Notes under the pieces: generated by a model
What the model saw: the letters and a program-made list of their open reading frames with translations, nothing else
Told to the model about the DNA's origin: nothing
Database searches by the model: none
Shown here: positions 1 to 56,426 of the stretch, piece by piece
Numbering within the stretch: position 1 is the stretch's first letter
Layout: the number at the start of each line of letters is the position of its first letter
Position numbers and translations under genes: made by a program
Virus record (IMG/VR): IMGVR_UViG_3300025087_000082
Span: 1-56,426 of that record
Direction: 5' to 3' (one strand)
DNA length: 56,426 nt
Origin: a virus

Positions 1-115
1 GCCTATGATGCGGAGTGCGAGTTACCGCTTGACATGGCAGAAAGCGTGCTGGTCAAGAATATCGCCTATGCCGTAAAGGAACAGGAGCAGACGCAGAAGC
101 CGGTTGATGCTGGCG
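1..115. repeat. Terminal direct repeat (assembly overlap), identical to 56312..56426
   Basis: The first 115 nt (gcctatgatgcggagtgcgag...ccggttgatgctggcg) recur exactly as the last 115 nt. Confidence 0.95.
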
Positions 116-237
116 ACGCCAAATGGCTACTGTCCAAGCGCGGCAAAAAGCGCGGGTATGGGGATAATGTTGAAATCGGCGGGCCACTTGGCGCGCCGCT
201 GACAATTACTGTCACAGTCAAAGGTATTGATGAATAA
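1..237 (+). CDS. terS: Terminase small subunit, 3' part
   Basis: Same frame as 56162.. through the 115-bp overlap. The ORF track shows the tail as 34..237. Confidence 0.6.
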   Translation, partial: AYDAECELPLDMAESVLVKNIAYAVKEQEQTQKPVDAGDAKWLLSKRGKKRGYGDNVEIGGPLGAPLTITVTVKGIDE

Positions 238-325
238 CGTCACGTGCTATAATAGAACAAATATTCAGGAAATGCCCCCGCGATGGTTGGACATCCGAGG
301 GCGTGACCAGCATAGGAGTGCTGAT

Positions 326-946
326 ATGAACATTTTAACACACAAGACAAGTGGGGTTTATGCCATTGTAAACAAAGCAGACGGCAAAAGATACGTAGGC
401 TCGTCGTGGAATATTGAAAGCCGATGGAAAAAACACATCTCATTACTTAACGCGGGGAAACATCACAGCATACATCTGCAACGCGCTTGGAATAAATACG
501 GGGCTAAAAACTTCGATTTTGTAATACTTGTTGCCTGTTTACGCACCGACCTTTTGATTTACGAACAGGATTATCTAGATTCCTGTAATCCTGAATACAA
601 CGTCTGTGTGACGGCTGGCAGCAAGGCTGGAACGCCGCGCTCATTGGCGACTAGGCTGAAACTTGCTATTGCCAACCTTGGTGAGAGGCACACAATTGAA
701 ACTCGGCAGAAAATGTCCATGTCTCACAAGGCAAATGGATGGCGACCATCCGAAGAAACTAAGCGGAAAATCTCTGTATCTCATACTGGTGTTTCTAAAG
801 GAGCGCACACAGCGAAGGCGAAACAAAAGATTTCAGCCGCACTAAAAGGCAAGCCGCTTTCAGACAAGAATAAACAAGGCATAGCTAATGCAATGAAAGG
901 CAATACAAATACATTAGGTAAACATTGGACGTGGAAAAAGAAATAG
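326..946 (+). CDS. GIY-YIG homing endonuclease with NUMOD3-like repeats
   Basis: Motifs GVYAIVN...RYVGSS...ESRWKKH...NFDF, followed by repeated H/S-x-E-T/K-R/K-x-K-I/M-S units. AGGAG lies 7 nt before the ATG at 326. The track ORF starts earlier, at 227. Confidence 0.85.
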   Translation: MNILTHKTSGVYAIVNKADGKRYVGSSWNIESRWKKHISLLNAGKHHSIHLQRAWNKYGAKNFDFVILVACLRTDLLIYEQDYLDSCNPEYNVCVTAGSKAGTPRSLATRLKLAIANLGERHTIETRQKMSMSHKANGWRPSEETKRKISVSHTGVSKGAHTAKAKQKISAALKGKPLSDKNKQGIANAMKGNTNTLGKHWTWKKK

Positions 947-947
947 A

Positions 948-2192
948 ATGACAATGATTAATGTAGATATAGACCCCGCCGTGTTTAATGATGCCTATAT
1001 TCCGTGTTTAAACGAAATGGCGCGAATACAAATTTACTATGGCGGTGCGTCGTCTGGAAAGTCTGTTTTTTTGGCGCAACGTGACATCAGGGACATTATG
1101 AAGGGCGGACGTAATTTCCTTGTTTGCAGGCAGGTGGCGCGTACGCTTCGCGGCTCAGTTGTGCAAGAGATAACAAAAGTTATTAGGGATTGGGGTTTGT
1201 CTGATTTGTTCTCTATAAATAAAACAGACGGGACAGTGACTTGTGTAAACGGATACCAGATAATATTTGCAGGTTTAGATGATGTTGAGAAGCTAAAAAG
1301 CCTGACCCCGGCTAAAGGTGTATTCACTGATGTTCGCATTGAAGAGGCAACAGAAATAGAACGTTCGTCAATCATCAAACAACTTTTGAAGCGTCAGCGC
1401 GGGGGGAGCGAGAAAACACCTAAGAGGCTGATGCTGTCATTTAATCCAATTCTACAATCACATTTTATCTATGCGGATTACTTCTCAATGATTGGGTGGA
1501 CTGACGACCAGAAAGAATATAAGTCGCCCGATTTATACATTCTAAAAACTACATACCGAGACAATAGGTTTCTTACCAGGGAAGATGTTAGGGGCTTGGA
1601 AAACGAGAAGGATAAGTATTATTTTGACGTATATTCAGAAGGCAACTGGGGCATTCTCGGCTATGTCATCTTCACCAACTGGCGGGTAGAGGATTTGTCC
1701 GGGATGCAGGCGCAATTCACCAACCACCGCAACGGCCTGGATTTCGGCTTCTCAGCAGACCCCGCCGCCCTGTGGGTGTCTCACTATGACGCGAAGCACA
1801 AACGCATTTATATCTTCGATGAGTTGTACGAGCGCGGGCTTACAAATGACCTGCTGGCCGTGGAAGTAAAGAACAGGATCGGCTCGGATTACGTAGTCTG
1901 TGATAGCGCCGAGCCGAAATCCATCGCCGAATTACAGCAGTATGGCGTTTCGGCGCTTGCGGCGGTCAAGGGCAAGGATAGCGTATTATTCGGTATCCAA
2001 TGGCTGCAACAGCAAGAGATCATCATTGATGCGAAATGCGTCAACGCAAAGAACGAGATTTCTACTTTTCACTGGCAGGAAGATGCTAACGGCAACGCAA
2101 TACGTAAGCCGGTCGAGAAGAACGACCATCTGATAGCCGCTGGCAGGTACGCGCACGAGGGCGACATGATCGATACATGGCTGGTTAGCTAA
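948..2192 (+). CDS. terL: Terminase large subunit (PBSX/Terminase_3-like)
   Basis: Walker A-like YYGGASSGKS, 414 aa, with a C-terminal nuclease-type acidic region. Position is between terS and portal. Confidence 0.9.
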   Translation: MTMINVDIDPAVFNDAYIPCLNEMARIQIYYGGASSGKSVFLAQRDIRDIMKGGRNFLVCRQVARTLRGSVVQEITKVIRDWGLSDLFSINKTDGTVTCVNGYQIIFAGLDDVEKLKSLTPAKGVFTDVRIEEATEIERSSIIKQLLKRQRGGSEKTPKRLMLSFNPILQSHFIYADYFSMIGWTDDQKEYKSPDLYILKTTYRDNRFLTREDVRGLENEKDKYYFDVYSEGNWGILGYVIFTNWRVEDLSGMQAQFTNHRNGLDFGFSADPAALWVSHYDAKHKRIYIFDELYERGLTNDLLAVEVKNRIGSDYVVCDSAEPKSIAELQQYGVSALAAVKGKDSVLFGIQWLQQQEIIIDAKCVNAKNEISTFHWQEDANGNAIRKPVEKNDHLIAAGRYAHEGDMIDTWLVS

Positions 2193-2201
2193 AGAGGACA
2201 A

Positions 2202-7294: not shown

Positions 7295-7531
7295 ATGATA
7301 GCCCGAAATGATATAGCCCGAAATGATATTGACCTGAATATGAACCTGGTTTTCAAATGTCGTCACTGTGGAAACACTATGGATAAAATCTTTGCTTCTG
7401 TTTACTGGTGTTCAAGATGTGGAACACTCAGAACGGGGCGTAAAGGAATAGTAAGCGTATATGTTCCAAGTTTCTATGACATCGAACTACCCGCCGAGCG
7501 GCTGGAACTGCTAGAAAGCACGGACGAGTGA
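7295..7531 (+). CDS. Small zinc-ribbon protein
   Basis: CRHCGN...CSRCG motifs. GAAAGGAAAAAG lies before the ATG at 7295. A 15-bp tandem repeat encodes ARNDIARNDI. Confidence 0.55.
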   Translation: MIARNDIARNDIDLNMNLVFKCRHCGNTMDKIFASVYWCSRCGTLRTGRKGIVSVYVPSFYDIELPAERLELLESTDE

Positions 7532-8217
7532 TTGCCCTTGTCACCGGCGGCTCACGCGGCATCGGCGCGGCGTGTGTCTGTGCGCTGAAGGACGCGGGGC
7601 ATACCGTCGCGGTTGTGGCAAGGACAAGGGCGGATTGTGACATGTTCATCAAAGCGGACTTATCGAATGAACAAGATCGGGAACACATCGTTGATAAGGT
7701 CGAGAGAGAACTAGGCGGGCTGGATATTCTCGTCAATAACGCGGGCTATCAACATCATGCACCTGTGACGGCTTACTGGCTGTCTGAGTGGCAATATCAA
7801 CTCGATCTGATTCTCACCGCCCCATTTGACCTATCCCAGCAGGCCGCCCGGCACATGCTTACCCACGGCGGCGGACACATCATCAATATCCTGTCCACGT
7901 CCGCCTTCCAGGGAGCGCGCAACATATCCGGCTATGTCGCCGCGAAACATGGTCTGCTCGGCCTCACGCGGGCGATGGCAATAGAGCTTGCACCGCTGAT
8001 AAGAGTTAATGCAATCGCGCCCGGTCTCATGGATACGCAGATGACGGCGGAGTACATTGATTTGCAGAGGCGGGAACTGCTGGAAAGCATAACGCCCGCG
8101 GGCAGATTCGGAAGGCCGGAGGAGATCGCTGGGGCGCTGATGTACTTAATTCAAAGTGAGTTTGTGTACGGTCAAACCATCGTGATTGATGGGGGATGGC
8201 TGGCGAAGAATGGCTAA
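7528..8217 (+). CDS. Short-chain dehydrogenase/reductase (FabG/ketoreductase-like)
   Basis: Motifs TGGSRGIG, NNAG and YVAAKHG (Y-x3-K). GTG start overlaps the upstream stop. Confidence 0.85.
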   Translation: MIALVTGGSRGIGAACVCALKDAGHTVAVVARTRADCDMFIKADLSNEQDREHIVDKVERELGGLDILVNNAGYQHHAPVTAYWLSEWQYQLDLILTAPFDLSQQAARHMLTHGGGHIINILSTSAFQGARNISGYVAAKHGLLGLTRAMAIELAPLIRVNAIAPGLMDTQMTAEYIDLQRRELLESITPAGRFGRPEEIAGALMYLIQSEFVYGQTIVIDGGWLAKNG

Positions 8218-8458
8218 AACGGTTTCACTTATTGGCGGCCCCGCTGACGGCGCAAAGGTGGATGTTTCAGAAGGCGTTGCCTATGTGATAGTGCCTTTCG
8301 CACAAGACATAAATTTATTGATAGACGAGAGCGACGTACTCCCCATTATTGGGTGGGATGATTGGGGGCCAATATTGAAGAGGGGTGATGTTCTACAGGC
8401 TCGTTATAACATCAATGGCAACATTGCCACCTATGAAGAAAGCGGGAGTGATGGCTAA
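8210..8458 (+). CDS. Hypothetical protein
   Basis: ATG at 8210 overlaps the SDR stop. 82 aa. Confidence 0.4.
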   Translation: MAKTVSLIGGPADGAKVDVSEGVAYVIVPFAQDINLLIDESDVLPIIGWDDWGPILKRGDVLQARYNINGNIATYEESGSDG

Positions 8459-9467
8459 GATAATCCAGGCTAAGGATTTGCGTGGGAAAAGAACTGACCG
8501 TCTTATAGACGTTGTGCCATTATCAACACCCTGGACGCTCTTTTTGGAGCCGACAAATTTATGCCAATATCGCTGCCGATATTGTCCTACGGGTGACACT
8601 GACCTACTCCGCAAGATAGGCAGAAAGAACACGCTGATGGATTGGGGTTTATGGGTCAAAGTCGTGGATGATCTGCGGGCGTTCCCTAATCGCATCCGGC
8701 AGTGCAATGTTTACAAAGATGGTGAGAGTTTGCTTCATCCCCGTTTCTGTGAGATGGTGCGATACCTTCGCGACGCTGATACAGTTGAACGCATCTGGTT
8801 GAAAACTAATGGATCAAAACTCTCCCCCTCCTACAACGCCCGCCTCGTTACCTGCGGCCTGGACATGATTGGCGTATCAGTCCAACACGTCCACGCGCAA
8901 GGCTTCTACGACATCGCCCGCGTGCGGATCGATTATGAGGAGTATCGTGCCAACGTGCTTGATCTGTACCAGCGGAGCCGGGATACCGGCGTACAGATTA
9001 GCACGAAGATAGCTGATGTTGGATTTAGCGACGCCGACAAGCAGAAATTCATAGACGACTTTAGTGATCGCTGCGACTTCATCGCAATAGAAGGTTTACA
9101 CGGCTGGTCTACGTCTGATTTGAAAGACTGGCGGCTGGGTACGGATAACAGCTTCGATGGCTCGCCGCGAACGCACAAGATTGCCTGCCCGTTGACGATG
9201 TACATGCTCACGGTAAACAGCAATGGCGATATATCCGTGTGTAATGATGACTTTGCCCATTATCACCAGCTTGGAAACGTAAACACAGAATCCCTTATTG
9301 ACATTTGGAACGGGAAACGTTTACGGGATTTTCGCCTGATGCACCTTGAGGGTAAACGAAGCGAGAACCGCGCATGTGGTACGTGTGATTATGTTTTAGC
9401 TTTGCCAGCCGTTGACAATATTGACGAATACCGCGAAGAATTTGCAGAAAGGTTGCGTGTTGTATGA
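8451..9467 (+). CDS. Radical SAM enzyme with C-terminal SPASM/twitch-type Cys cluster
   Basis: CQYRCRYC (CxxxCxxC) near the N-terminus. C-terminal cysteines in CPLTMY...SVCNDD...CGTCDY. GGGAG lies before the ATG at 8451. Confidence 0.85.
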   Translation: MAKIIQAKDLRGKRTDRLIDVVPLSTPWTLFLEPTNLCQYRCRYCPTGDTDLLRKIGRKNTLMDWGLWVKVVDDLRAFPNRIRQCNVYKDGESLLHPRFCEMVRYLRDADTVERIWLKTNGSKLSPSYNARLVTCGLDMIGVSVQHVHAQGFYDIARVRIDYEEYRANVLDLYQRSRDTGVQISTKIADVGFSDADKQKFIDDFSDRCDFIAIEGLHGWSTSDLKDWRLGTDNSFDGSPRTHKIACPLTMYMLTVNSNGDISVCNDDFAHYHQLGNVNTESLIDIWNGKRLRDFRLMHLEGKRSENRACGTCDYVLALPAVDNIDEYREEFAERLRVV

Positions 9468-10492
9468 GGCCTTGCCCCGTCTGTGAACATCTCTCCCGCA
9501 CCGAAGTATTTCGTATGCCCTACCGCATCCCCGACTCTTGGCCTCTGCCGTCTGAGATTATCTGGTACACCTGTGACGCCTGTTCGATGTTTTACGGAGA
9601 TGGTAATTTTGATCAAGCGATGCTCAACGAATACTACACCAAATACTACGGCTACGGCGTCAACAACCCCTCCAATATCGAGCGCCTGAAAATGGACGCG
9701 GTACGGATAGCGGAACTGGAACGCAACCGGGAGGCCGTCATCGTGGACTTCGGCGGAGCGGGCGATGATGGCAAAAGTATCATCGTTGGCATGTTGCAGG
9801 ACAGGGGATATACGAACGCCGTCTGCGTGGGTGCAGGCGATCCCCTGCCCCAGCAATGTGACCTTATCTATGCCTCCCACGTCATCGAGCATGTCTACGA
9901 TTTGCCTAAGACGATGGAACGGATAGACGATGCGCTCGCGCCTGATGGCTTGCTCATCATGGACGGACCAGACGCGACGGGCCTGCTTCAAAAGTGGAAG
10001 ATGCCGATATTGGACTTCAATACCAAGCACCTAAATCATTTCACGTTGCGGGATTATCTCAATTTGGGATACCATCACGGCTTCGAATTGGTTGACCTGC
10101 CTACGCAGGCAGGCGTGCGGAAGTACGAACTTGAGAACGCGCCCGCGTATCAATTGCAATTCAGGCGGCTGGACGTGGCGCGGGAGTCAGCGAAACACAT
10201 CACGGATAACATATCCGCCCGCGTGGATAGGCTCAAAACGCTTGCGGGCTTGCCGCTCAACGTCTGGGGCATGGGAGATATTACATGGCATCTGCTAGCA
10301 CAGGTGGAACTCAATATACTTGACTATATTGATAACGATCCCGCGTACCGCGGGCAGACCTACAACGGCAAGCCGGTACAGGAACGACCTACCAACGCCG
10401 CGCCGATCCTGATAATGGCGCAGGGACAGCGGCAACGGCTGATCGAAAATATCAGGAAGGCGGGTATAGAAAACCCGATCATTGAAACATGA
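9464..10492 (+). CDS. SAM-dependent methyltransferase with N-terminal Zn-ribbon (NDP-hexose C-methyltransferase-like architecture)
   Basis: CPVCEH...CDACSMF zinc ribbon, motif I VDFGGAGDDG, and an extra C-terminal domain. The architecture matches TylC3-type sugar C-methyltransferases. Confidence 0.7.
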   Translation: MRPCPVCEHLSRTEVFRMPYRIPDSWPLPSEIIWYTCDACSMFYGDGNFDQAMLNEYYTKYYGYGVNNPSNIERLKMDAVRIAELERNREAVIVDFGGAGDDGKSIIVGMLQDRGYTNAVCVGAGDPLPQQCDLIYASHVIEHVYDLPKTMERIDDALAPDGLLIMDGPDATGLLQKWKMPILDFNTKHLNHFTLRDYLNLGYHHGFELVDLPTQAGVRKYELENAPAYQLQFRRLDVARESAKHITDNISARVDRLKTLAGLPLNVWGMGDITWHLLAQVELNILDYIDNDPAYRGQTYNGKPVQERPTNAAPILIMAQGQRQRLIENIRKAGIENPIIET

Positions 10493-10998
10493 ACGTATCA
10501 CAAATAATTTGGGAAAGGCTGAAACAAGAAACTGAAGTTGTATTCTACCTTCCTGGCGGCGGCTCCGGGCCGCTGGTGGATGCGCTTGGCGCGTCGGGAT
10601 TGCGCGCCGTGTGCTGCCTACATGAGCAGGGCTGCGGCTACGCGGCGGTCGGGTATGCACAGTATCACGGATTCGGCGTGGCGTTGGTCACGTCGGGTCC
10701 TGGGGTCACTAATATTCTCACGCCTGTACTTGCTGCATGGGTAGACAGTATCGCCCTGTTGGTGATAAGCGGCCAAGTCATGCGGAAGTGGCTAGCGCTT
10801 GATGATATGCGATCACGCGGGACACAGGAGGGGCCGACAATAGAAATGGTGAGGCCGATAGTCAAGATAGCGCATCAGCCGAGCGTGAGTGCGGGAATAT
10901 TAGAAGTACTGGACGGGATGATTGAGATAGCAAAAGAAGGGCGTCCCGGCCCCGTGTGGCTCGACATCCCGCAAGACATACAGGCCGCCGATGTATAA
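10489..10998 (+). CDS. ThDP-dependent enzyme, N-terminal PYR domain (ALS/YerE-like), split gene part 1
   Basis: HEQGCGYAAVGYA...VTSGPGVTN...GPVWLDIPQD is typical of TPP_enzyme_N. It ends 8 nt inside the next ORF. Confidence 0.8.
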   Translation: MNVSQIIWERLKQETEVVFYLPGGGSGPLVDALGASGLRAVCCLHEQGCGYAAVGYAQYHGFGVALVTSGPGVTNILTPVLAAWVDSIALLVISGQVMRKWLALDDMRSRGTQEGPTIEMVRPIVKIAHQPSVSAGILEVLDGMIEIAKEGRPGPVWLDIPQDIQAADV

Positions 10999-12127
10999 GC
11001 CAGTCATCCTCATCGGCAACGGCATCCGCAATAACCCGGCGCTTATAAATCACCTTACTTCTTTACAAGTGCCGTGCATTACAACTTGGATGGCGGCTGA
11101 TCTACTGTCAGAAGATTCCCCCGTCTATTGCGGCAGACCTGGAATCTTCGGCCAGCGCGCATCTTGCATAATTCAGCAAAAAGCCACCCATCTCTATTGC
11201 TTCGGCGCACGGCTGGACGGTGAACAAGTCGCCTATGATTATGACCGCTTCGCGCCGAATGCGGAGATATATATTTATGATATAGACCCCGCAGAGGCAC
11301 AGAAGTTCCCGAAGCGTTACCACGTTACGCAGACCCTTGATTGTAGAGATGACATTGATTTTCTTCCGGCCTTTGAACCGCCTCATCGCGACTGGCTCAA
11401 CTGGTGCAAGGCGCTCTACACCCGCTTCCGGCCTGAACTGGACGGGAGACAGGAGACGGGAGACGGAGGCGGCGATCATTTCGTAGACCCGTTCACGTTC
11501 ACGCGACTCCTGCATGACCACAGCCAGTCGGATGACGTGTTCGCTATCGGCTCATCGGGCAACGCCCCGACTGTGTTCTTCCAGGCGTATAAAGTCCGAG
11601 CGGGGCAGCGTATCTCCAACGTCTGCACAATCGGCGCAATGGGCGCTGATATTCCGATGGCTCTCGGCTCTGCGCTGGCATCCGGGCGGCGCACTATCTG
11701 CGTGACGGGCGACGGCGGCTTTGCGATGAACGCGCAGGAACTGGAGACGATACGCAGGCTGCGCCTGCCGATTATCTTTTTCGTGATGAATAACGGCGGC
11801 TATAACTCCATCCGCGTGGGACAGCTTGCGCGCTTCGGGCGCGTGACGGGTGCCAACCCTGCCACAGGGCTGACGCTCCCCAGCATAGAAGCAATTGCGG
11901 AGGCATATCGCCTCTGTTACATGCCCTTGCATGGGCGGGATTTGCCGAACTTCGCCCGATGCTTCGGGATTGCGCCGATGGTCGTGGAAGTGTTTGTTGA
12001 CCCCGAATGGCAGCAGTTGCCGCGCGTGATGGCAAGTGGTAATCCGATCAGGACAGATGACATGGAGAATATGTATCCATATCTACCTGAGAATGAATTG
12101 AGAGAGATTATGGAGTGGGACGGGTAA
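10991..12127 (+). CDS. ThDP-dependent enzyme, central and PP domains (ALS/YerE-like), split gene part 2
   Basis: Central domain KPVILIGNG...PCITTW. ThDP motif GDGGFAMNAQELETIRRLRLPIIFFVMNNGGY. Confidence 0.85.
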   Translation: MYKPVILIGNGIRNNPALINHLTSLQVPCITTWMAADLLSEDSPVYCGRPGIFGQRASCIIQQKATHLYCFGARLDGEQVAYDYDRFAPNAEIYIYDIDPAEAQKFPKRYHVTQTLDCRDDIDFLPAFEPPHRDWLNWCKALYTRFRPELDGRQETGDGGGDHFVDPFTFTRLLHDHSQSDDVFAIGSSGNAPTVFFQAYKVRAGQRISNVCTIGAMGADIPMALGSALASGRRTICVTGDGGFAMNAQELETIRRLRLPIIFFVMNNGGYNSIRVGQLARFGRVTGANPATGLTLPSIEAIAEAYRLCYMPLHGRDLPNFARCFGIAPMVVEVFVDPEWQQLPRVMASGNPIRTDDMENMYPYLPENELREIMEWDG

Positions 12128-12155
12128 CCGCCACACTTCGGAAAGGTTTGAAAAA

Positions 12156-12377
12156 ATGAAAAAGACTATCTTCCTGATTTTAGTGCTGGTATTATTACTG
12201 ACTGCTTGTGGAGGCAGTAAACATACCTACGAAATGACGCTGACGTCTGGAGAGACAATTACGGTGGAGTACGCTGTCTGTAAACCGGGATACGGTGTTA
12301 TCGAATGTTGGAGTAATGTGATGCAACGCTTTCCAGACGCCTCCTATAGTGCAGTAACATTCAAGAAGATTAAATAA
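12156..12377 (+). CDS. Small lipoprotein
   Basis: Signal peptide with lipobox: MKKTIFLILVLVLLLTAC. Confidence 0.6.
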   Translation: MKKTIFLILVLVLLLTACGGSKHTYEMTLTSGETITVEYAVCKPGYGVIECWSNVMQRFPDASYSAVTFKKIK

Positions 12378-12393
12378 TAAGTATATTCAATTG

Positions 12394-12415
12394 TCGCCTT
12401 GCGCGCTGTCGCTGG
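12394..12415 (+). repeat. 22-bp direct repeat, copy 1 (TCGCCTTGCGCGCTGTCGCTGG)
   Basis: Recurs at 12621..12642 with one mismatch. Each copy lies roughly 13-17 nt after the stop of a small ORF. Confidence 0.85.
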
Positions 12416-12434
12416 AGACAAGAAAGGTTTTGAA

Positions 12435-12608
12435 ATGGCACTAACAATAGTTTTGATTTTGATGATTTTCCTGCCCCTGGTTGTTGGCAGTTACATGCAC
12501 TATACTTTGGGCATTACATCAGGAATGGATATTGCCGCGACGGTTTTACTGTATATCGTGGAAATGGCAGTGTTTTATTCCGTGATGATAAAGCGCCCTC
12601 AAAAGTAA
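12435..12608 (+). CDS. Small two-TM membrane protein
   Basis: MALTIVLILMIFLPLVVGSY... GAAAGG lies before the ATG at 12435. Confidence 0.5.
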   Translation: MALTIVLILMIFLPLVVGSYMHYTLGITSGMDIAATVLLYIVEMAVFYSVMIKRPQK

Positions 12609-12620
12609 CCTGTTGTATTT

Positions 12621-12642
12621 TCGCCTAGCGCGCTGTCGCTGG
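12621..12642 (+). repeat. 22-bp direct repeat, copy 2 (TCGCCTAGCGCGCTGTCGCTGG)
   Basis: See 12394..12415. Confidence 0.85.
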
Positions 12643-12713
12643 TAACAAAACTAATATGTATCAATCTCAGTGTATCGTTGTATACCTGTTACTTGATAAA
12701 GGTAACGGTATAT

Positions 12714-13844
12714 ATGAAAGTCCCTATTTCGGGGCAAGTGACTGGAAAGGAAGAAGCGGATAACGTGATAGAAGTCGCGAACTCGCAGAGTTACGGCGGA
12801 TTCATTTGGACGAACCGCTTCGAGCGCGGCTTCGCTCGATTCATGGGTGCGCGTGAGGCGATCCTGTGTAATAGCGGTTCGAGTGCAAATTTACTGGCAT
12901 TATCTGCTCTAGAGCTTCCGAAAGGCTCGGAGGTCATCACCACGGCGGTGAACTTCCCCACGACGGTCAATTGCATCATTCAGCTTGGCTTAGTGCCGGT
13001 GTTTGTGGACAGTGACCCAAAGACGCTGAACTGCGCGGACGGCTGGGAATATTCTCCCGACAATGTAAAAGCCATTATTATGGCGCATGCGCTTGGAAAC
13101 CCCGTAGACCTGACTTATTTGTCGAGCTATGGAATACCTATCATCGAAGATTGCTGCGACGCGGTAGGGAGCACGATCAACGGGCAGATGGTTGGTCGTC
13201 GCGGCATAATGTCTACCGTCTCATTTTACCCGGCGCATCACATCACCACCGGCGAAGGTGGCATGGTACTGACTGATAGCCCGCGGCTGAGGAAGATTAT
13301 CGAGAGTTACCGGGATTGGGGGCGGGACTGCTTCTGTGAGCCAGGAAAGGATAATACCTGCGGGAAACGATTTGACTATGAAATAGATCATAAATATATG
13401 TACTCGCGTATCGGGTGGAATCTCAAGGCAAGCGATTTCCAAGCCGCCGTAGGTGTGGCGCAACTGGATAGGCTTGAAGGGTTTATCGAAAAGCGGCGCG
13501 AGAACTGGACATATTTGTATAATAACTTGAAGGATTTACCGATTGAGATCGTCCAGGCTTCGCCGGGGAGCAACCCTTCATGGTTCGGCTTTGCTTTTGT
13601 TACAGAACACCGTAACAAATTGGCGCGGTATCTGGATGAGCGTGGAGTCGGGAATAGGCCCGCAATGGGCGGCAATCTGCTGAGACAATCCGCGTATAAG
13701 AACATAGAGCATCGCGTCATTGGTAATTTAGATGGCGCCAATATCATTCATGAAAAAGCGATTTGGGTCGGCGTCTTTCCAGGGATCAATGAGGAAATGA
13801 GAGAGTACCAAGCGGAAACCATTCGGAGTTTTTACAATGGCTAA
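12714..13844 (+). CDS. rfbH: CDP-6-deoxy-D-xylo-4-hexulose-3-dehydrase (E1 / RfbH / DdhC family, PMP- and [2Fe-2S]-dependent)
   Basis: NSGSSANLLAL. SFYPAHHITTGEGG has His in place of the PLP lysine. RDWGRDCFCEPGKDNTCGKRF, DHKYMYSRIGWNLK and PSWFGF are also present. C-X57-C-X1-C-X7-C spacing is intact. Confidence 0.9.
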   Translation: MKVPISGQVTGKEEADNVIEVANSQSYGGFIWTNRFERGFARFMGAREAILCNSGSSANLLALSALELPKGSEVITTAVNFPTTVNCIIQLGLVPVFVDSDPKTLNCADGWEYSPDNVKAIIMAHALGNPVDLTYLSSYGIPIIEDCCDAVGSTINGQMVGRRGIMSTVSFYPAHHITTGEGGMVLTDSPRLRKIIESYRDWGRDCFCEPGKDNTCGKRFDYEIDHKYMYSRIGWNLKASDFQAAVGVAQLDRLEGFIEKRRENWTYLYNNLKDLPIEIVQASPGSNPSWFGFAFVTEHRNKLARYLDERGVGNRPAMGGNLLRQSAYKNIEHRVIGNLDGANIIHEKAIWVGVFPGINEEMREYQAETIRSFYNG

Positions 13845-14085
13845 AACAAACAAGATCACGAAATTTGAGATTCGATCATCTGACGAATTGACAGACCTGA
13901 CATCGTTCGTAAAAGGCATGGAAGTAAAGCCGTACCATCCATCGCTTTTGCGTCGTTTGTTCAATTGGCTTTGGTGGCAATGGTTCAGGCATAAAATCAA
14001 CAGGTCATGGAGGAAAATATCAAGAGGTGCAACGATTGAGATTGAATTTGTAAAACGAATACGTGAGCCGTGGAGATGGAACTGA
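13837..14085 (+). CDS. Hypothetical basic Trp-rich protein
   Basis: 82-aa ORF that overlaps both neighbours. Confidence 0.4.
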   Translation: MAKTNKITKFEIRSSDELTDLTSFVKGMEVKPYHPSLLRRLFNWLWWQWFRHKINRSWRKISRGATIEIEFVKRIREPWRWN

Positions 14086-14087
14086 TA

Positions 14088-14765
14088 ATGGATAAAGTTT
14101 TAGTCGTAGGCGGTACAGGCTTCTGTGGCTTTTGGATGCGGCAAACCGCCCCGCCTGATTTACGTATCAGTTACATCGGCAAAAGCGACTACGAACTCCG
14201 GCACTGGAAATGGATGACCTGGGATTACATCGTGCATCTGGCGAATATCTCGCCGTATGAGGTTCTGGAATATGCACAGCCATTCGGTATCCGCGTGCTG
14301 TATGCTTCGAGCGGTATTGTCTATCACGATGAGAATGATACCGAGTACAGGCAGAATAAACTCGATTGGGAAAAAGAGTGCCTGGATAGCGGCGTCGATG
14401 TGGTCGTTTGTCGGTTGTTTGCATTTCATGGGGAAAGGCTATCAGCAGATCACGCGATAGTAGCATTTGAAAATGCGGCAAGAAAAGGCGAGCCACTGAG
14501 AATATTTGGGGATGGAAATACTATTAGAACATATATGAGCGGCGAAGATATGGCGCGGCGAATGTGGGCTGTGTTACTGCATGGCGAGCGCGGCGAATGC
14601 TACGACATCGGAGGCATTACGCCGATCACGATGCTTGAATTGGCAAAAAAGATTATCAAGGATAATAACTCAAAGTCAGAAATAGTTGTCGAGAATGGCA
14701 AAGACCCAATGCCTTGTTACGTGCCAGTAGATGCAGAAAAAACAGAGAGATTGCTAGATAAGTAA
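14088..14765 (+). CDS. NAD(P)-dependent epimerase/reductase (extended SDR, short form)
   Basis: Rossmann motif VLVVGGTGFCG and a later Y-x3-K-like region. The track ORF begins at 14070. Confidence 0.6.
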   Translation: MDKVLVVGGTGFCGFWMRQTAPPDLRISYIGKSDYELRHWKWMTWDYIVHLANISPYEVLEYAQPFGIRVLYASSGIVYHDENDTEYRQNKLDWEKECLDSGVDVVVCRLFAFHGERLSADHAIVAFENAARKGEPLRIFGDGNTIRTYMSGEDMARRMWAVLLHGERGECYDIGGITPITMLELAKKIIKDNNSKSEIVVENGKDPMPCYVPVDAEKTERLLDK

Positions 14766-34354: not shown

Positions 34355-34378
34355 AATTACCTTTCTGTGGGCGAGTCC

Positions 34379-34594: not shown

Positions 34595-34618
34595 GTTTCC
34601 TTCTTCCTGGGCGAGTCC

Positions 34619-34852: not shown

Positions 34853-34879
34853 TATTTAGGTTTCTGAGGGACAACGCCA

Positions 34880-35113
34880 TTATCTGTTTGCTTTCCAGTG
34901 ATTGATCGGCGCAATTTCCTTCATAGCCTTTTCAAATTCTTCCAGTGTTTTGAAGGTATCGTGACCGATCTCTCCTGTTTCGTCTTGACCGAAGTATGTC
35001 AGGCGATAACCACCCATCAATTCTTCGGTGGCGACTGTGGAAGAACTATCTTCCATTTCAAAAACTAAGCCGCCGTTGTATTCTCGCAGTTGATATTGTT
35101 TCTTGTCGTTCAT
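34880..35113 (-). CDS. Cassette D ORF 1 (77 aa, acidic)
   Basis: GGAG lies before the ATG at 35113. Confidence 0.6.
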   Translation of the reverse strand: MNDKKQYQLREYNGGLVFEMEDSSSTVATEELMGGYRLTYFGQDETGEIGHDTFKTLEEFEKAMKEIAPINHWKANR

Positions 35114-35130
35114 TTCGATCTCCTTTTTGT

Positions 35131-35142
35131 AATCTATAGATT
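35131..35142. promoter_or_regulatory. Perfect 12-bp palindrome AATCTATAGATT (operator-like), copy 1
   Basis: Lies between the -10 and the RBS of the 34880..35113 gene. Confidence 0.6.
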
Positions 35143-35143
35143 T

Positions 35144-35171
35144 ATTTTACTACTAATCTATAGATTGTCAA
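35144..35171 (-). promoter_or_regulatory. Cassette-internal sigma70-type promoter
   Basis: Minus strand: TTGACA (35171..35166), 16 nt spacer, TAAAAT (35149..35144). It overlaps two operator-like palindromes. Confidence 0.55.
35155..35166. promoter_or_regulatory. Perfect 12-bp palindrome AATCTATAGATT (operator-like), copy 2
   Basis: Abuts the -35 hexamer. Centres of the two copies are 24 bp apart. Confidence 0.6.
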
Positions 35172-35196
35172 GGGTGAGTTTTTACGCTTTCTGGGC

Positions 35197-35323
35197 GTCT
35201 AACGGCTGGTTTTAGCTGCGGGGCGGTTCCTGGGTGACATTACTCCAATCAAAATCACCCATGCTGCCATCGTCCATTTTGCGCCAACCCGTAGCCCCGT
35301 CAGACTGCAAACCTTTGTTAGGC
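35197..35323 (-). repeat. attC-like site 7
   Basis: GCCTAAC-AAAGG-TTTGCAGTCTG-A-CGGGGC ... GCCCCGCAGC-TAAAACCAGCC-GTTAGAC. The cassette ORF stops at the TAA inside R''. Confidence 0.8.
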
Positions 35324-35443
35324 GGCTATTTCACCTTGCAGAAAACCTATAACCTGCTCGGCTGTTGTAAAACCATACTTCCATGAGTTGCCATCCTCTT
35401 TTACGAAAATCAATTCAATGACAAAAAGGTTATCTAAATTCAT
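35318..35443 (-). CDS. Cassette C ORF (41 aa)
   Basis: GAAAGGAAG lies before the ATG at 35443. MNLDNLFVIELIFVKEDGNSWKYGFTTAEQVIGFLQGEIAA. The stop lies in R'' of attC 7. Confidence 0.45.
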   Translation of the reverse strand: MNLDNLFVIELIFVKEDGNSWKYGFTTAEQVIGFLQGEIAA

Positions 35444-35466
35444 AACTTCCTTTCGGCGGAGCGTCC

Positions 35467-35592
35467 GCCCAACGGCTCGCTTTAGCGGCGGCGTATTACG
35501 CCTCATGCTCCCGCTTGATAATCGCTTCCATTTCGCCACGCTTCACAGCCTCGGCAGACCGTTCAGCCGTCCGCTGCAAGCGTTTGTTAGCC
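35467..35592 (-). repeat. attC-like site 8
   Basis: GGCTAAC-AAACG-CTTGCAGCGG-A-CGGC ... GCCGCCGC-TAAAGCGAGCC-GTTGGGC. Confidence 0.85.
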
Positions 35593-35777
35593 CGCCCCCG
35601 TGCATTACAGAGCGCCCATTGTGCCTGAGCCAAAGACGGCGCAAGATCATCGCAGTTGAAGCCATCAACTTCGAATAAGCCCCACGCATCATCCATTTCC
35701 AAAATTTCAGGATGTGACGGAATTAGCGCAAGGATTCTATCTGCCAATTCATTACCAGTTGATTCATAATTCAACAT
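35496..35777 (-). CDS. Cassette B ORF (93 aa)
   Basis: AGAAAGGAA lies before the ATG at 35777. The ORF ends inside attC 8. Confidence 0.6.
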   Translation of the reverse strand: MLNYESTGNELADRILALIPSHPEILEMDDAWGLFEVDGFNCDDLAPSLAQAQWALCNARGRANKRLQRTAERSAEAVKRGEMEAIIKREHEA

Positions 35778-35805
35778 TTCAAATTCCTTTCTTTTGCCCG
35801 TAGCG

Positions 35806-35934
35806 GGCTAACGGCTTGCGTTAGCGGTTTGCCGAGCCGTGAACGGGACAATTAGGATCAATACTCAACGTCGTTGGAGTCGGTCGCGTGGAGCAGGTGC
35901 ATACCGGCAAATCCGCTGCACGCATTTGTTGGGC
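35806..35934 (-). repeat. attC-like site 9 (first complete site)
   Basis: GCCCAAC-AAATG-CGTGCAGCGG-A-TTTGCCGG ... CGGCAAACCGC-TAACGCAAGCC-GTTAGCC. Confidence 0.85.
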
Positions 35935-36048
35935 GGCTTTACAATCCAGGCACGTACATTCGGCGATAACGTAGGTTGTTTGGGATATAAACTTTGCACC
36001 GCACAACGCCATTGACCCATCACCACCGTTTGAAATTAGATGAACCAT
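35821..36048 (-). CDS. Cassette A ORF (75 aa, Cys-rich)
   Basis: AGAAAGGTG lies before the ATG at 36048. MVHLISNGGDGSMALCGAKF...CTCLDC... The 3' end runs through attC 9. Confidence 0.55.
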   Translation of the reverse strand: MVHLISNGGDGSMALCGAKFISQTTYVIAECTCLDCKAAQQMRAADLPVCTCSTRPTPTTLSIDPNCPVHGSANR

Positions 36049-36073
36049 AAGACACCTTTCTGCGGAACAAGTC

Positions 36074-36080
36074 CGCCCAA
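36074..36080 (-). repeat. Orphan R' box (GTTGGGC) at the head of the array (attI-like junction?)
   Basis: GTTGGGCGGAC is identical to the internal R' boxes, but the upstream flank (ggaataactccgtagataccata) lacks the L' consensus and no R'' partner lies upstream. Confidence 0.55.
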
Positions 36081-36097
36081 CTATGGTATCTACGGAG

Positions 36098-36271
36098 TTA
36101 TTCCGTATAACATCCCGCATGGGGATGTTTTTCCGGCTCCTCATCCAGCGCGTCATGATCATATGTACACTCCCAGCCCACGAGCGTCAGTTCCATCTCG
36201 TGATCGCAGATGCGGCAGACAGGATCGCCGTCCGGGGGTTCTGAGGGGGGGTCGAAGGTGAGGCGGGTCAT
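36098..36271 (-). CDS. Small Cys-containing protein (57 aa), third gene of the pre-array operon
   Basis: Hand translation: MTRLTFDPPSEPPDGDPVCRICDHEMELTLVGWECTYDHDALDEEPEKHPHAGCYTE. ATGA overlap with the upstream stop. Confidence 0.5.
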   Translation of the reverse strand: MTRLTFDPPSEPPDGDPVCRICDHEMELTLVGWECTYDHDALDEEPEKHPHAGCYTE

Positions 36272-36495
36272 GCTGGCTCCTGGGCGGTCTTAGCTGATGC
36301 GTGAAATTTTCCGGCAGGAACCGTTTCGGATGTGCCATCGGCATACCGCAGGCATAATATATTGTGATAACCCCACGTAGTACCCGCGCGGCGTGTGCGA
36401 AATCGGTTTATGATAGCGCATTGTTTCCCGTTATAAATAAATGTGAGTTTATTTGTTACCTGATTACCAATGCTGTATTTCATTTGTGTGTTCAT
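36268..36495 (-). CDS. Hypothetical protein (75 aa)
   Basis: The ATG at 36495 forms an ATGA overlap with the upstream stop. Confidence 0.55.
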   Translation of the reverse strand: MNTQMKYSIGNQVTNKLTFIYNGKQCAIINRFRTRRAGTTWGYHNILCLRYADGTSETVPAGKFHASAKTAQEPA

Positions 36496-36740
36496 GCCGG
36501 CACATCCCATACAATAGGCTTAGCACCCTTCGGGGCATGTTCAGCGCAATACCAGTGTCCAACATTGCACCATGATGGATTCTTTGATGGATCACAAACT
36601 GTGGCAAGGGTAGCAGGTCTCCCGCACCACACCGCGCTGGACATTGCCCATGATAACTTGCTGTCATCGTGTCCAACAATAGCAGCACAAGTAATCAGTG
36701 TATCCCCTTCATGTAATTTTCCATCTGCGTGTGTATTCAT
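36492..36740 (-). CDS. Hypothetical Cys/Trp-rich protein (82 aa), first gene of the leftward operon
   Basis: AAAAGGAAAAC lies before the ATG at 36740. Confidence 0.6.
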   Translation of the reverse strand: MNTHADGKLHEGDTLITCAAIVGHDDSKLSWAMSSAVWCGRPATLATVCDPSKNPSWCNVGHWYCAEHAPKGAKPIVWDVPA

Positions 36741-36765: not shown

Positions 36766-36794
36766 ATTATAAAGCAGGAATATGAATTTGTCAA
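36766..36794 (-). promoter_or_regulatory. Consensus sigma70 promoter driving the leftward operon and cassette array
   Basis: Minus strand: TTGACA (36794..36789), 17 nt spacer, TATAAT (36771..36766). Confidence 0.75.
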
Positions 36795-38405: not shown

Positions 38406-38966
38406 ATGTTAGATCAAGCAATTACACCCTTGCAGGAAATTGCCCAGCCCGCCGAAGCGGGATTCTCAACCAATATGTTTCTCAATCATCCGATGATGGG
38501 CCGCGTCCAGTTCACGTTCCGCGGCGCAACCGCCCGCGATTGGGGAACTGTGATGGAGGACGTAGGGCGCTTCCTGCACTACATGAAAGACAAGGGCTGG
38601 AACTTTGACGGCTATGCCGCCGCGAAGCCAGCCGAAGCCCCGCAAACACCCCAACCCCCCGATCCTAATGAGCCGCAATATACAAACGTTGATGACAGTG
38701 GCAGCGAACTGCCGCCCGTCAAATCGTTCGTGGCTGAAAGGCTATCCGTCAAGATGGAAGATGGTAAATACTTCTACAAGGTCATGGGCGGGCAGTTCAA
38801 CCAGTGGGGCATTAGCGTATGGCCTGAGGTGCTTGAGGCTTGCAGGATCAACGTCACTGACCCCGCCAGCCCTCCAAGCATCAACGGCTGGACGGCTGAG
38901 TACACCGAGATACAGAAGGACGGCAAGACCCGCCGCAAGGTGACGCGGTTACTGCCACCTAAATAA
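38406..38966 (+). CDS. Hypothetical protein (186 aa)
   Basis: AAAAGGAG lies before the ATG. Pro-rich linker in the centre. Confidence 0.6.
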   Translation: MLDQAITPLQEIAQPAEAGFSTNMFLNHPMMGRVQFTFRGATARDWGTVMEDVGRFLHYMKDKGWNFDGYAAAKPAEAPQTPQPPDPNEPQYTNVDDSGSELPPVKSFVAERLSVKMEDGKYFYKVMGGQFNQWGISVWPEVLEACRINVTDPASPPSINGWTAEYTEIQKDGKTRRKVTRLLPPK

Positions 38967-44400: not shown

Positions 44401-44468
44401 TACTTCCATTGTGGGGTATGTCAGTATGAGCAAGCTGGATGGCTATATCAGGAGCCATACAAGATGAG
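44396..44468 (+). repeat. 73-bp imperfect direct repeat, copy 2
   Basis: See 44123..44195. Confidence 0.85.
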
Positions 44469-44661
44469 CGTACTAAGTGATTTGAAATGGAATCTGGTTC
44501 ACGAACGTCCAGATAAGAACGGGAGATGTGTCACCTACATCGTGGACGCGAAAGGCAATAGAATTGCCGTATCCAAAAAGCGCCAAACCGGAGAGGATGC
44601 TTACGCTCAAGCCGAAAAATACGCGGAGAAATACTTGTCTGAGCATCCGGGCGGGGATTGA
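44464..44661 (+). CDS. Hypothetical protein (65 aa)
   Basis: Its start lies within repeat copy 2. Confidence 0.5.
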   Translation: MSVLSDLKWNLVHERPDKNGRCVTYIVDAKGNRIAVSKKRQTGEDAYAQAEKYAEKYLSEHPGGD

Positions 44662-45461: not shown

Positions 45462-46541
45462 ATGGCTGATAAAAATAGGAACGAGTTCTTTGACATGGGA
45501 GCACTCGACGAACTGGACAAGCAGATCACGGAGCGCATGGCTCGCCCCACCCTTGTAAAGAAACTCAAAGAAAAAAAGAAAGCCGCAAGCAAGGTCGAAG
45601 GCTTGAACTGGAAGAAGGAGATGGAGGAATATTGGTACGTGTATCTGTTCCTTGCCATCTCTGCTATGTTCACAGGCACGCTCGGCATCTATATGGGACT
45701 ATCCCCAAAACTACTCCCTGAACAGAACGTAATATTCTACAATACCGACATTCCCCACATCATTCTTGCGTTGGTGTATTTTATCGCGTTCATTGGTGTC
45801 ACTGAATTGGCTTTTGCGATTATGAAGTGGAAATTCCACACGCGTGAAGAAAACAACGGTACGCAGCAATGGACAATGATAACAGGAATGGGTGTCAGTG
45901 GTCTGAGCATCCTGGCAACCGGAATTGCAGGCGGAACGGTGATTGCAAGCAACATTACTTTTCTTACGGACTTCGCCAGTGTTCCCGATGCCGCGCAGAA
46001 GTGGGTCGTGATCGCCATTCCTGTCTTAATTACTACCTATACGTTTTTACTCTCCGCCTATGCCCTATCATCCGAGAGCGCACAGTCTGAGCGGTTGACC
46101 CGCGAGCAGGAACGGGAAAACGAGTTGGATCACCGTACCCGCCTTAAGAGTATTGAGCAAATCGGCGCGCAACAATTACAGGTTGCTGAAATCCGGCGTT
46201 ATCAGCAATTGGTACTAGCTGGCAAGATTAGCGCCGCGGAAGCAGCCGCAGCCATTCGTGCGGGCAGGACACTCAATCAAGAAGAGACGCGTCAGAGTCG
46301 TGATATTGACGGCGATAATATTGTTGGCGGTTCACGTACTCAGTTTTATGACATGGATGCATTTCTTGCCGCGGTCGGCATGACCCGCGAGCAGGCCGTC
46401 GCAAAGTGGAAGGGCAAAGAGTATAAAGACTTTGCGGGAGAGATCAGTCAAAAGCTGGACATTCGCGGGGAGAACATGAGGCAATTGTTCGGTGAACTTT
46501 TCCCTCAAGCCCAGGGGGTGAGCAACAACGGGCGGCGGTAG
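45462..46541 (+). CDS. Multi-pass membrane protein with C-terminal coiled-coil/soluble domain
   Basis: About 5 hydrophobic segments between roughly aa 55 and 205, then a charged helical region. Confidence 0.6.
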   Translation: MADKNRNEFFDMGALDELDKQITERMARPTLVKKLKEKKKAASKVEGLNWKKEMEEYWYVYLFLAISAMFTGTLGIYMGLSPKLLPEQNVIFYNTDIPHIILALVYFIAFIGVTELAFAIMKWKFHTREENNGTQQWTMITGMGVSGLSILATGIAGGTVIASNITFLTDFASVPDAAQKWVVIAIPVLITTYTFLLSAYALSSESAQSERLTREQERENELDHRTRLKSIEQIGAQQLQVAEIRRYQQLVLAGKISAAEAAAAIRAGRTLNQEETRQSRDIDGDNIVGGSRTQFYDMDAFLAAVGMTREQAVAKWKGKEYKDFAGEISQKLDIRGENMRQLFGELFPQAQGVSNNGRR

Positions 46542-54712: not shown

Positions 54713-54722
54713 TAAGGAAACC

Positions 54723-54917
54723 ATGAAAAAACTACTCCCCTTCCTGCTCGGCTTCGCCCTCTCCGCCTACGTCCTGCCCTGGCTAATGATGCGTAGGCAG
54801 TACGATCCCTGGAAGCCTGCGACTAGCTGCGACATTGAAGACGTGCCGCCCTACAATTTCGTAATGACCAGGACTGATACCGGACACACGGTAACGTGGA
54901 CATGGAATACAGAATAA
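54723..54917 (+). CDS. Small membrane/secreted protein (64 aa)
   Basis: MKKLLPFLLGFALSAYVLPWLMM... Confidence 0.45.
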   Translation: MKKLLPFLLGFALSAYVLPWLMMRRQYDPWKPATSCDIEDVPPYNFVMTRTDTGHTVTWTWNTE

Positions 54918-54921
54918 ACCA

Positions 54922-56139
54922 ATGAAGCCTTTCGAAGATAACCCCAGGACGCTTTCGAAGTCGCAGGCAAAGCGGCTGAAGGAAACCATGCAGGAGTTTG
55001 GCGATCTATCTGGAATCGTCCACGATCTTGAGACTGATGAGGTCATCGGCGGGAACCAGCGTTCCAACGTTGCGGCGCTGATGCAGACAGAGCCGGTCAT
55101 CACCGAACGCTTTGACCCTGCCCTACCGGACGGAACCGCGTTACTCGGACACTTCGAGTACCAGGGCAGGCGCTTCGCATACCGGGCGGTAACGGGCTGG
55201 GACGCGGATAAGCGGACGCGGGCGAATCTGGTAGCAAATGCTGGAGGCGGTGCATGGGATATTGACCTGCTTAGTGGAATTGACACATCTGTTCTAACAT
55301 CGGTCGGCTTCGATACCGAGATGCTCCTGAACACGCGCGGGTTCGCTAGTGCGCTGGATGCGATGCTGAAAAGTGAGACGCCAACAAATGACGCAGAGCC
55401 GGAGATTGATAGAGCCGCCGAACTGCTGGAGAAGTGGAAAGTTCGCACAGGTGATATGTTCGCTATCGGTGGACATAAACTTATTTGCGGCGATTGCACC
55501 GACGCGGCGGTAGTGGCGAGGGTGATGCAGGGAGAGAAGGCGGGCGCGTGTGTAACCGATAGCCCTTACGGGATAAACCGCGAGGGAATAGAGAACGATG
55601 ATCCCGAGGGCTTGCGTAAGTTGTTTGATGGTTGCCTTGCTGTAATGCCGATAGAGAATGGTGTGATTATAAATTTTCAATCGCCGCGATTGTTTTCTGT
55701 GTGGCTGGACGCGGTAAGGGACGCGGGGCATAAGTTTGAGCGGGCTTTGTGGATGTACAAGCAGAATGACGTTACTTTTACTTGGCATGGATGGCTTACA
55801 AAATCAGAAGCAATTATTGTTTCCAGTATTGGAAAGCCGAAATGGAATATCCCCGCTGAATATATGCACGACTGTTATTTAGTGAATTGGGACAAGGAAA
55901 GCATGGTTGAGATTGACGGCTGGCACGCTTCAATAAAACCGCCGCAAGTTGTCATAAGCCTTATAGATAATACAACGGGCGATTTATACGAGCCGTTTTG
56001 TGGAAGTGGAACGGGATTAGTCGCCTGTCAGAACTTAGGGCGCAAGTGTAGAGCCGTGGAAATATCTGCGGCATATTGTAGCGTGGCGTTAGAGCGCATG
56101 TCGCAGGCGTTCCCCCACCTATCCATAGAGAGAATCTAG
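54922..56139 (+). CDS. ParB-like nuclease domain fused to a DNA methyltransferase
   Basis: N-terminus ...QEFGDLSGIVHDLETDEVIGGNQR is ParBc-like. CVTDSPYGINREG and LYEPFCGSGTGLVACQNLG are methyltransferase motifs. Confidence 0.8.
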   Translation: MKPFEDNPRTLSKSQAKRLKETMQEFGDLSGIVHDLETDEVIGGNQRSNVAALMQTEPVITERFDPALPDGTALLGHFEYQGRRFAYRAVTGWDADKRTRANLVANAGGGAWDIDLLSGIDTSVLTSVGFDTEMLLNTRGFASALDAMLKSETPTNDAEPEIDRAAELLEKWKVRTGDMFAIGGHKLICGDCTDAAVVARVMQGEKAGACVTDSPYGINREGIENDDPEGLRKLFDGCLAVMPIENGVIINFQSPRLFSVWLDAVRDAGHKFERALWMYKQNDVTFTWHGWLTKSEAIIVSSIGKPKWNIPAEYMHDCYLVNWDKESMVEIDGWHASIKPPQVVISLIDNTTGDLYEPFCGSGTGLVACQNLGRKCRAVEISAAYCSVALERMSQAFPHLSIERI

Positions 56140-56161
56140 AGTAATTCCGAGAATAACGCGA

Positions 56162-56426
56162 ATGGCAAAGCATCCGACCAAGATACGCAAGGCGCAACTA
56201 CTCAAGGCAATCGCAGGCAGCGGCGGCATTGTCTCGACTATCGCGGCGCGGCTGGATGTCTCATGGTCTACAGCTAAGGGTGCTATTCCTGTATACCCTG
56301 AAGCACAGGCCGCCTATGATGCGGAGTGCGAGTTACCGCTTGACATGGCAGAAAGCGTGCTGGTCAAGAATATCGCCTATGCCGTAAAGGAACAGGAGCA
56401 GACGCAGAAGCCGGTTGATGCTGGCG
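56162..56426 (+). CDS. terS: Terminase small subunit, 5' part (ORF continues through the overlap into 1..237)
   Basis: ATG at 56162. Translation MAKHPTKIRKAQLLKAIAGSGGIVSTIAARLDVSWSTAKGAI has an HTH-like N-terminus. It is in frame with the 34..237 ORF across the repeat, giving 128 aa in the circular genome. It lies immediately upstream of terL. Confidence 0.6.
   Translation, partial: MAKHPTKIRKAQLLKAIAGSGGIVSTIAARLDVSWSTAKGAIPVYPEAQAAYDAECELPLDMAESVLVKNIAYAVKEQEQTQKPVDAG
56312..56426. repeat. Second copy of the 115-bp terminal direct repeat
   Basis: Exact match to 1..115. Confidence 0.95.

Follow-up and report, generated by a model that had tools for sequence, protein, structure and literature searches.

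Whether a phage genome that encodes no recombinase of its own can exchange genes through an integron is the question raised by the IMG/VR record IMGVR_UViG_3300025087_000082, the whole 56,426 nucleotides of which (hereafter the window) were analysed. Nine attC recombination sites of 111–142 bp each lie on its minus strand between positions 32697 and 35934 and delimit nine small gene cassettes headed by an attI-like site. The locus is probably a non-autonomous integron platform, consisting of promoter, attI and cassettes, which would be served in trans by an integron integrase (IntI) coming from the host or from a helper phage.

Absence of a recombinase from a closed phage genome

The original prediction, made from the sequence alone, had regarded the genome as closed through a 115-bp overlap and an integrase as unlikely to be missing through truncation, and both points held. 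The two copies of the terminal repeat are identical, the record is classed in IMG/VR as having direct terminal repeats and being 100% complete, and an open reading frame (ORF) resembling the gene for the small terminase subunit continues across the join. The closed 56.3-kb genome of this tailed groundwater phage encodes terminase, portal, major head, tape measure and Dit proteins, DnaB and three DNA methyltransferases. Independent assemblies of the same phage were 99.9–100% identical to the window over the array and its flanks and contained no additional gene there, so a gap in the assembly does not account for the missing recombinase.

No recombinase or transposase had been seen in the genome previously, and the searches made here agreed. 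Six-frame searches of the window with hidden Markov models (HMMs), accompanied by working controls, gave no match for tyrosine recombinases, integron integrases, resolvases or large serine recombinases (PF00589, TIGR02249, PF00239 and PF07508), nor for rve (PF00665), the integrase SAM domain (PF13495) or DDE_Tnp_1 (PF01609); PF02914 gave no match, yet its controls gave none either. The best E value in the window was 0.012 with a custom HMM built from IntI of Anaerolineae and their phages, and 0.013 in a tblastn search for IntI. In a Pfam scan of 64 small or unassigned ORFs, among which a divergent recombinase might have been hidden, no recombinase was present among the 25 families listed, and about 40 larger ORFs compared with PHROGs or Pfam had no recombinase match, about a dozen being left without a family assignment. 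Transposase-labelled matches were limited to generic helix-turn-helix (HTH) domains and one Mu C-terminal match in a 71-aa ORF, and the latter was rejected as non-catalytic and below the cutoff (16.6 bits vs 27). Regular-expression motifs for tyrosine and serine recombinases matched short shadow frames only and were also discarded.

An unrecognised recombinase could still be sought among the unassigned ORFs longer than 150 aa, which include a 359-aa protein encoded at 45462–46541. This explanation was considered extremely improbable, as no unassigned ORF matched any profile, the Atlas look-alikes of the 359-aa protein and of a 186-aa protein belong to no recombinase family, and the sites in the window have the form of canonical IntI substrates, common to IntI-bearing hosts.

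Structure of the cassette array

The attC sites were sought by their R'' (RYYYAAC) and R' (GTTRRRY) boxes, inner L arms and an overall length of 57–141 bp, and boxes and lengths of this kind were found in the window, the boxes being degenerate at sites 8 and 9. A detector based on position weight matrices (PWMs) of the two arms had just 15 seed sites, of which two came from the window, and overlooks sites that are degenerate; it found eight of the nine, and 10 codon-shuffled versions of the window yielded a single hit. In minimum-energy folds the R and L arms were paired at attC 1, 3, 5, 6 and 7, whereas alternative folds won at 2, 4, 8 and 9. An Rfam scan of the window returned nothing. The sites proposed originally were confirmed and, with nine clustered attC and no intI nearby, the locus had been rightly called a CALIN (cluster of attC sites lacking an integron integrase) under the IntegronFinder definition, which asks for at least two attC; that designation left out the attI-like site described below.

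The cassettes are 240–605 bp long (Table 1). In six of the nine, R'' and its flank are more similar to the cassette's own start than to the downstream R' (two ties, one reverse), a trace of the kind that circular cassettes should leave when they enter at G/TT. The same trace prevailed by 137:7 across viral arrays and by 118:2 in arrays of the host group. In the window it fades distally: it is broken at cassette 7, whose R'' differs from its own start and which appears to be older and rearranged, attC 8 and attC 9 have become degenerate, and a fusion is seen in cassette 9, since its 62-aa gene stands alone as a cassette with its own attC in the phage contig L292 (84% identical). The terminal ORFs of eight of the nine cassettes read 31–39 codons through attC in one common frame. 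No real match was found when ten cassette ORFs were compared with PHROG. The promoter and palindromes of cassette 4 (35171–35110) recur with 97% identity over 64 bases in contig L056, where they also precede a gene of ribbon-helix-helix (RHH) type (49% identical to window 34634–34852) in a different cassette context.

An attI-like site and a predicted promoter at the head of the array

The R' box of the first cassette, at 36081, is not preceded by an attC. To score this junction, one PWM was derived from host attI sites read directly upstream of intI in 15 chromosomal integrons of Anaerolineae and another from 24 other phage array heads. Among the 1752 GTT sites of the genome, position 36081 ranked second with the host PWM and first with the phage PWM. 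The junction resembles the attI cores of Anaerolineae hosts, being identical to one host attI at 25 of 40 positions, and the site is attI-like by these sequence measures. A predicted promoter matching the consensus at 12 of 12 positions faces the cassettes from about 690 bp upstream of attI, with three ORFs in between, and is a probable equivalent of the integron promoter Pc. The attI match, the promoter and the cassettes together indicate an element composed of these three parts, in which only intI is lacking; no intI with the IntI-specific domain that marks a complete integron was found in the window. An exact search for the window attI in metagenome contigs found nothing, nor did a search there for relatives of an HTH gene that lies at a divergent promoter pair in the window.

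Single cassettes shared among phages

Cassette 2 is 99.4% identical (337 of 339 bases) to a cassette in L292, where the neighbours on both sides are different, so that it must have moved recently and alone. At the 3' side the identity stops exactly at G/TT, and at the 5' side it runs ten bases into the conserved arm. A 93-bp attC upstream of a homologue of cassette 2 is missing from L295 and L297, probably through assembly collapse of the hairpin. In L292 the attI is preceded by a 54-aa internally deleted intI relic (385–549; N-terminus joined to C-terminus), which sits behind a fragment of an ordinary tyrosine recombinase. Contig L293 (1–1246) has the distal array in common with L292 at 99.9% identity, but the heads differ, L293 beginning with an attI near the host type of L212 and L222; this difference is due either to a module swap or to chimeric assembly.

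A replaced array was found in the syntenic sister phage L225, whose flanks are 73–94% identical to those of the window and which shares the promoter and a leader gene with it. At the same locus L225 has no intI, a different attI and about 14 cassettes, two of them recurring in L292 and all of them unlike those of the window. Window attC 6 is 91% identical to L225:2473–2588, where the gene differs. One 270-bp cassette, bounded exactly at G/TT, distinguishes the sister contigs L312 and L313, and their crossover falls where the two have just a few bases in common. The phages G027 and G033 are 99.9% identical, yet the first cassette behind their identical attI differs, and several phages share one conserved attI family, each of them having its own first cassette behind it. 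A blastn search against 50,697 GenBank phage records gave no match, and relatives reached through the tail-side gene at 31996 had no array within 10 kb.

A tyrosine recombinase is altogether absent from at least five complete phages that bear an array, and most of those examined retain the attI core and intact cassettes. No excess of decay was detectable in the cassettes of near-complete phages without intI when these were compared with the cassettes of phages that carry it: the own-start match was 8.95 vs 9.54 of 10 (p 0.08) and the arm score 46.1 vs 44.8 (p 0.29), respectively. In G034 (L276–L277), a complete 38-kb phage without a tyrosine recombinase, attC clusters occur on both strands, and the attI from which one of them starts is almost the same as the host consensus.

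Exchange also occurs below the level of the cassette. The interiors of attC sites were swapped between unrelated cassette genes in 59 phage–phage and 127 phage–host pairs (at least 80% identity), with breakpoints in the conserved left arm. As the ORFs read through attC in one frame, such swaps exchange C-terminal tails of 31–39 aa.

Integrase genes of related phages and their decay

Full IntI was encoded in eight viral records (L189–L193 and L263–L265, corresponding to G033, G027, G039, G020, G003, G095, G099 and G103). In the seven in which the site was readable, intI and the array side are co-oriented, and the stop codon of intI is overlapped or directly adjoined by attI. These proteins fall into two phage-only groups, 50–57% identical to host IntI, in a tree built with no outgroup, where the positions of the long rows L266, L217 and L218 cannot be relied on. 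Besides the relic in L292, stages of intI decay are represented by a 180-aa N-terminal fragment in L267 (G108) and by L266 (G087), a very divergent IntI-like protein of 345 aa. Many array-bearing phages also carry an ordinary tyrosine recombinase. A search by regular expression gave no LexA-like box upstream of intI and hence no indication of SOS control. In an incomplete sample of the literature, no paper dealt with phage-only IntI clades, with attI retained in recombinase-free phages or with a phage-specific cassette pool.

The window attI was considered as the 3' stump of a lost intI, and this was rejected by the alignment of the upstream region, though one frame there resembles the C-termini of phage IntI. 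Over the 60 bases upstream of the crossover, attI sites at intI 3' ends scored 15–26, and the other phage attI sites scored 22 on average and 30 at best, while a host attI came closer (25/40).

Integrons of the probable host group

The exact 21-base pattern of the attC left arm was found in 63 stretches in viral contigs and in more than 120 in prokaryotic genomes, mostly of Anaerolineae, and the host of the phage is probably a member of this class (Chloroflexota). The original prediction would have failed if no plausible host carried an integron integrase, but such a host group exists: the Anaerolineae have the attC type and the attI core in common with the window, and IntI scored above the cutoff in 18 of 30 genomes carrying the left-arm pattern and, in a sample of 401 genomes of the class, in 111. 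The host intI genes are chromosomal and divergent from the arrays.

With attC arms and an attI core of host type, and with the many attC interiors common to phages and hosts mentioned above, the array might have been captured wholesale from a sedentary host integron, which was one of the possibilities raised earlier. The cassettes themselves argue otherwise. In hosts their median length is 777 bp and the ORF usually ends at R'' (89 of 159), whereas in phages the median is 378 bp and the ORF usually runs into attC (126 of 163). Cassette bodies were common to 36 phage–phage pairs and to five phage–host pairs, and all five of the latter lie on short contigs of doubtful origin. Phage cassettes thus appear to form their own pool and, as the window array also had no match in the 401 class genomes, wholesale capture was judged very improbable.

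A further suggestion had been that the entire phage genome could be inserted by host IntI through the att sites, the target being a host integron, much as CTX-phi makes use of XerCD. Such integration is mechanistically possible for a genome with attI, attC, no integrase and a divergent promoter pair with an HTH gene, and a Vibrio prophage flanked by attC repeats has been described (PMC9892861). However, a search of the class genomes for an inserted phage revealed no relative of the terminase, DnaB or array, a weak negative because these genomes are incomplete and no positive control existed. The provirus G021, which has no tyrosine recombinase hit, holds its array internally and has no att site at its ends, which is likewise weak evidence; many array-bearing phages own an ordinary tyrosine recombinase; and, by the established integron mechanism, IntI would readily excise such a cointegrate again. 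The suggestion therefore found no support, and there is only a very slim chance that it applies.

A proposed platform served in trans and its main rival

Under the favoured explanation, small accessory genes would circulate as single cassettes among phages of the same host group. IntI would be supplied in the infected cell, either from the host chromosome or from the integron of a second phage, co-infecting or resident, and would recombine folded single-stranded attC sites at G/TT. Cassettes would be excised and newcomers would enter at the phage attI, adjoining the early promoter, while older cassettes would shift distally, fuse and decay. The swaps would take place on the window genome itself rather than on an intI-bearing donor, and the cassettes would be expressed from the predicted promoter. 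Of the original proposal that the phage swaps cassettes using the IntI of its host, the use of a borrowed IntI is best supported, but the source could equally be a co-infecting phage that carries IntI.

The main rival holds that no IntI is needed now, the array having been built by IntI on an intI-bearing phage that later lost the gene, or the array or its pieces having been received by homologous recombination through the attC arms. Phage integrons with their own IntI exist and loss of intI is visible in L292 and G108, but the window contains no intI relic and its attI is no nearer to the intI-3'-end type than to other attI sites. The decay of cassettes 7–9 and the exchange of attC interiors within a conserved arm would suit a frozen or passively refreshed array. 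Against it, 2 of 339 bases separate cassette 2 from a copy that is flanked differently on both sides, which marks a recent lone move, the L312/L313 crossover lies where the contigs have just a few bases in common, and attI cores are conserved in many intI-less phages. This rival was considered rather unlikely.

Several points weigh against a platform served in trans. In every sampled strain of the window phage whose sequence spans the array, the cassettes and their order were identical, so that no swap was caught, and this lack of variation is in keeping with the rival. The different attI of L225 implies that whole modules of attI plus array are also exchanged by other means, and the exchange of attC interiors points to homologous or non-canonical recombination acting too. 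L292, L312 and L313 are fragments, whose phages could encode IntI elsewhere. The host was assigned almost only from the attC and attI types, and no prophage or close DnaB relative was present in the 401 class genomes.

A wider reading, given an even chance, is that phages of Anaerolineae share a phage-specific integron economy, in which a minority would carry an IntI of the phage clades with attI at its 3' end and the majority would keep attI and promoter and hijack the IntI of host or helper to trade single early genes.

Other features of the genome

The coordinates of the locus and of the terminal repeats are collected in Table 1. Elsewhere in the window, a homing endonuclease of GIY-YIG type (227–946) lies between the genes for the small and large terminase subunits, and the head module contains a sugar-modification island (7528–14765) encoding a short-chain dehydrogenase/reductase (SDR), a radical SAM protein, a thiamine-pyrophosphate enzyme, an aminotransferase and a nucleotide-sugar epimerase. 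Two insertions, each about 90 bases long, distinguish the strain contig L304 from the window at 38864–38886 and 44438–44482, and both lie beyond the array. Apparent gene differences of the strain contig L305 were dismissed as differences in gene calling, its DNA being identical.

Table 1. Positions of the integron-like locus and of the terminal repeats in the window
Feature	Position	Strand	Remarks
Terminal direct repeat, copy 1	1–115		assembly overlap closing the genome
Cassette 9	32703–33181	-	479 bp; 62-aa and 80-aa ORFs; degenerate attC 32697–32838
Cassette 8	33182–33444	-	263 bp; 73-aa ORF; degenerate attC 33176–33298
Cassette 7	33445–34049	-	605 bp; 51-aa and 140-aa ORFs; attC 33439–33567
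Cassette 6	34050–34384	-	335 bp; 98-aa ORF; attC 34044–34165
Cassette 5	34385–34624	-	240 bp; 66-aa ORF; attC 34379–34489
Cassette 4	34625–35202	-	578 bp; promoter 35171–35144; 77-aa ORF and 72-aa RHH-like ORF; attC 34619–34730
Cassette 3	35203–35472	-	270 bp; 41-aa ORF ending at R''; attC 35197–35323
Cassette 2	35473–35811	-	339 bp; 93-aa ORF; attC 35467–35592
Cassette 1	35812–36080	-	269 bp; cysteine-rich ORF of about 75 aa; attC 35806–35934
attI-like site	36075–36115	-	crossover G/TT between 36081 and 36080; short inverted repeat upstream
Three non-cassette leader ORFs	36098–36740	-	82, about 75 and 57 aa; separate the promoter from attI; not similar to IntI
Predicted sigma70-type promoter	36766–36794	-	12/12 consensus; heads the leftward operon; conserved also in the sister phage L225
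Terminal direct repeat, copy 2	56312–56426		

Relation to known systems and significance

Integrons are regarded as bacterial devices for gene capture and as stores of defence genes. Seventeen phage CALINs, on virulent and uncharacterised phages among others, were described by Qi, Rajabal, Ghaly, Tetu and Gillings in 2023 (Front Microbiol 14:1091391, PMC9892861), so the surprise of finding one here is limited. In that study phage attC sites recombined with IntI1 in E. coli, five of the six tested recombining with attI1, an attI was given for no cases other than those of class 1 and of Shewanella prophages, and phage CALINs were suggested to stem from bacterial cassettes captured in an illegitimate or homologous manner. 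The window resembles these elements in its co-oriented attC cluster, its small ORFs and its location in a phage genome without intI, but differs in keeping an attI of host type, in drawing on what appears to be a phage-specific pool and in having single cassettes in common with other phages.

A CALIN is defined by the presence of two or more attC sites with no nearby intI (Cury et al. 2016, PMC4889954), and CALINs have been proposed to be hitcher elements mobilised in trans (PLoS Biol 2024, PMC11389934), an idea that is stated in both papers but little tested. The window agrees with the definition, and an integrase encoded elsewhere is the proposed mobiliser. As the definition ignores attI, it does not capture that the attI and promoter of the window would make it an acceptor platform and not merely a donor of cassettes. 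For such a platform the window offers unusually direct evidence, namely the attI, a single cassette 99.4% identical elsewhere and a sister phage with a replaced array.

The sedentary chromosomal integrons of Anaerolineae have the attC arms, the attI core and the own-start footprint in common with the window; they differ in their divergent intI, long cassettes and ORFs that stop at R'', where the window has no intI, short cassettes and read-through of attC. The intI-bearing phage relatives, though not the window, are comparable to the reverse integron of Treponema denticola (PMC4909258), as their intI is co-oriented with the array and attI lies at the 3' end of intI, though the element in Treponema is a chromosomal one.

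Integrative mobile elements exploiting Xer (IMEX), such as CTX-phi with XerCD and dif, provide another parallel, being recombinase-less phages with a site for a host tyrosine recombinase on folded single-stranded DNA. IMEX integrate the whole genome through that site, whereas the evidence from the window points to internal exchange of cassettes.

If recombinase-free phages keep a working attI and borrow IntI, host machinery would reshuffle phage early genes one by one, part of the mosaicism of small phage genes would be explained by site-specific recombination, and the long-proposed use of CALINs in trans would gain a concrete case. The locus supplies named substrates for this, the attI at 36081 and attC 1–6, with the IntI clades of hosts and phages as the enzymes. 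Should the integron economy indeed be shared by the phages of Anaerolineae, the integron machinery of the host would also equip its phages, and reading through into exchangeable attC interiors would add variable C-terminal tails to their small proteins.

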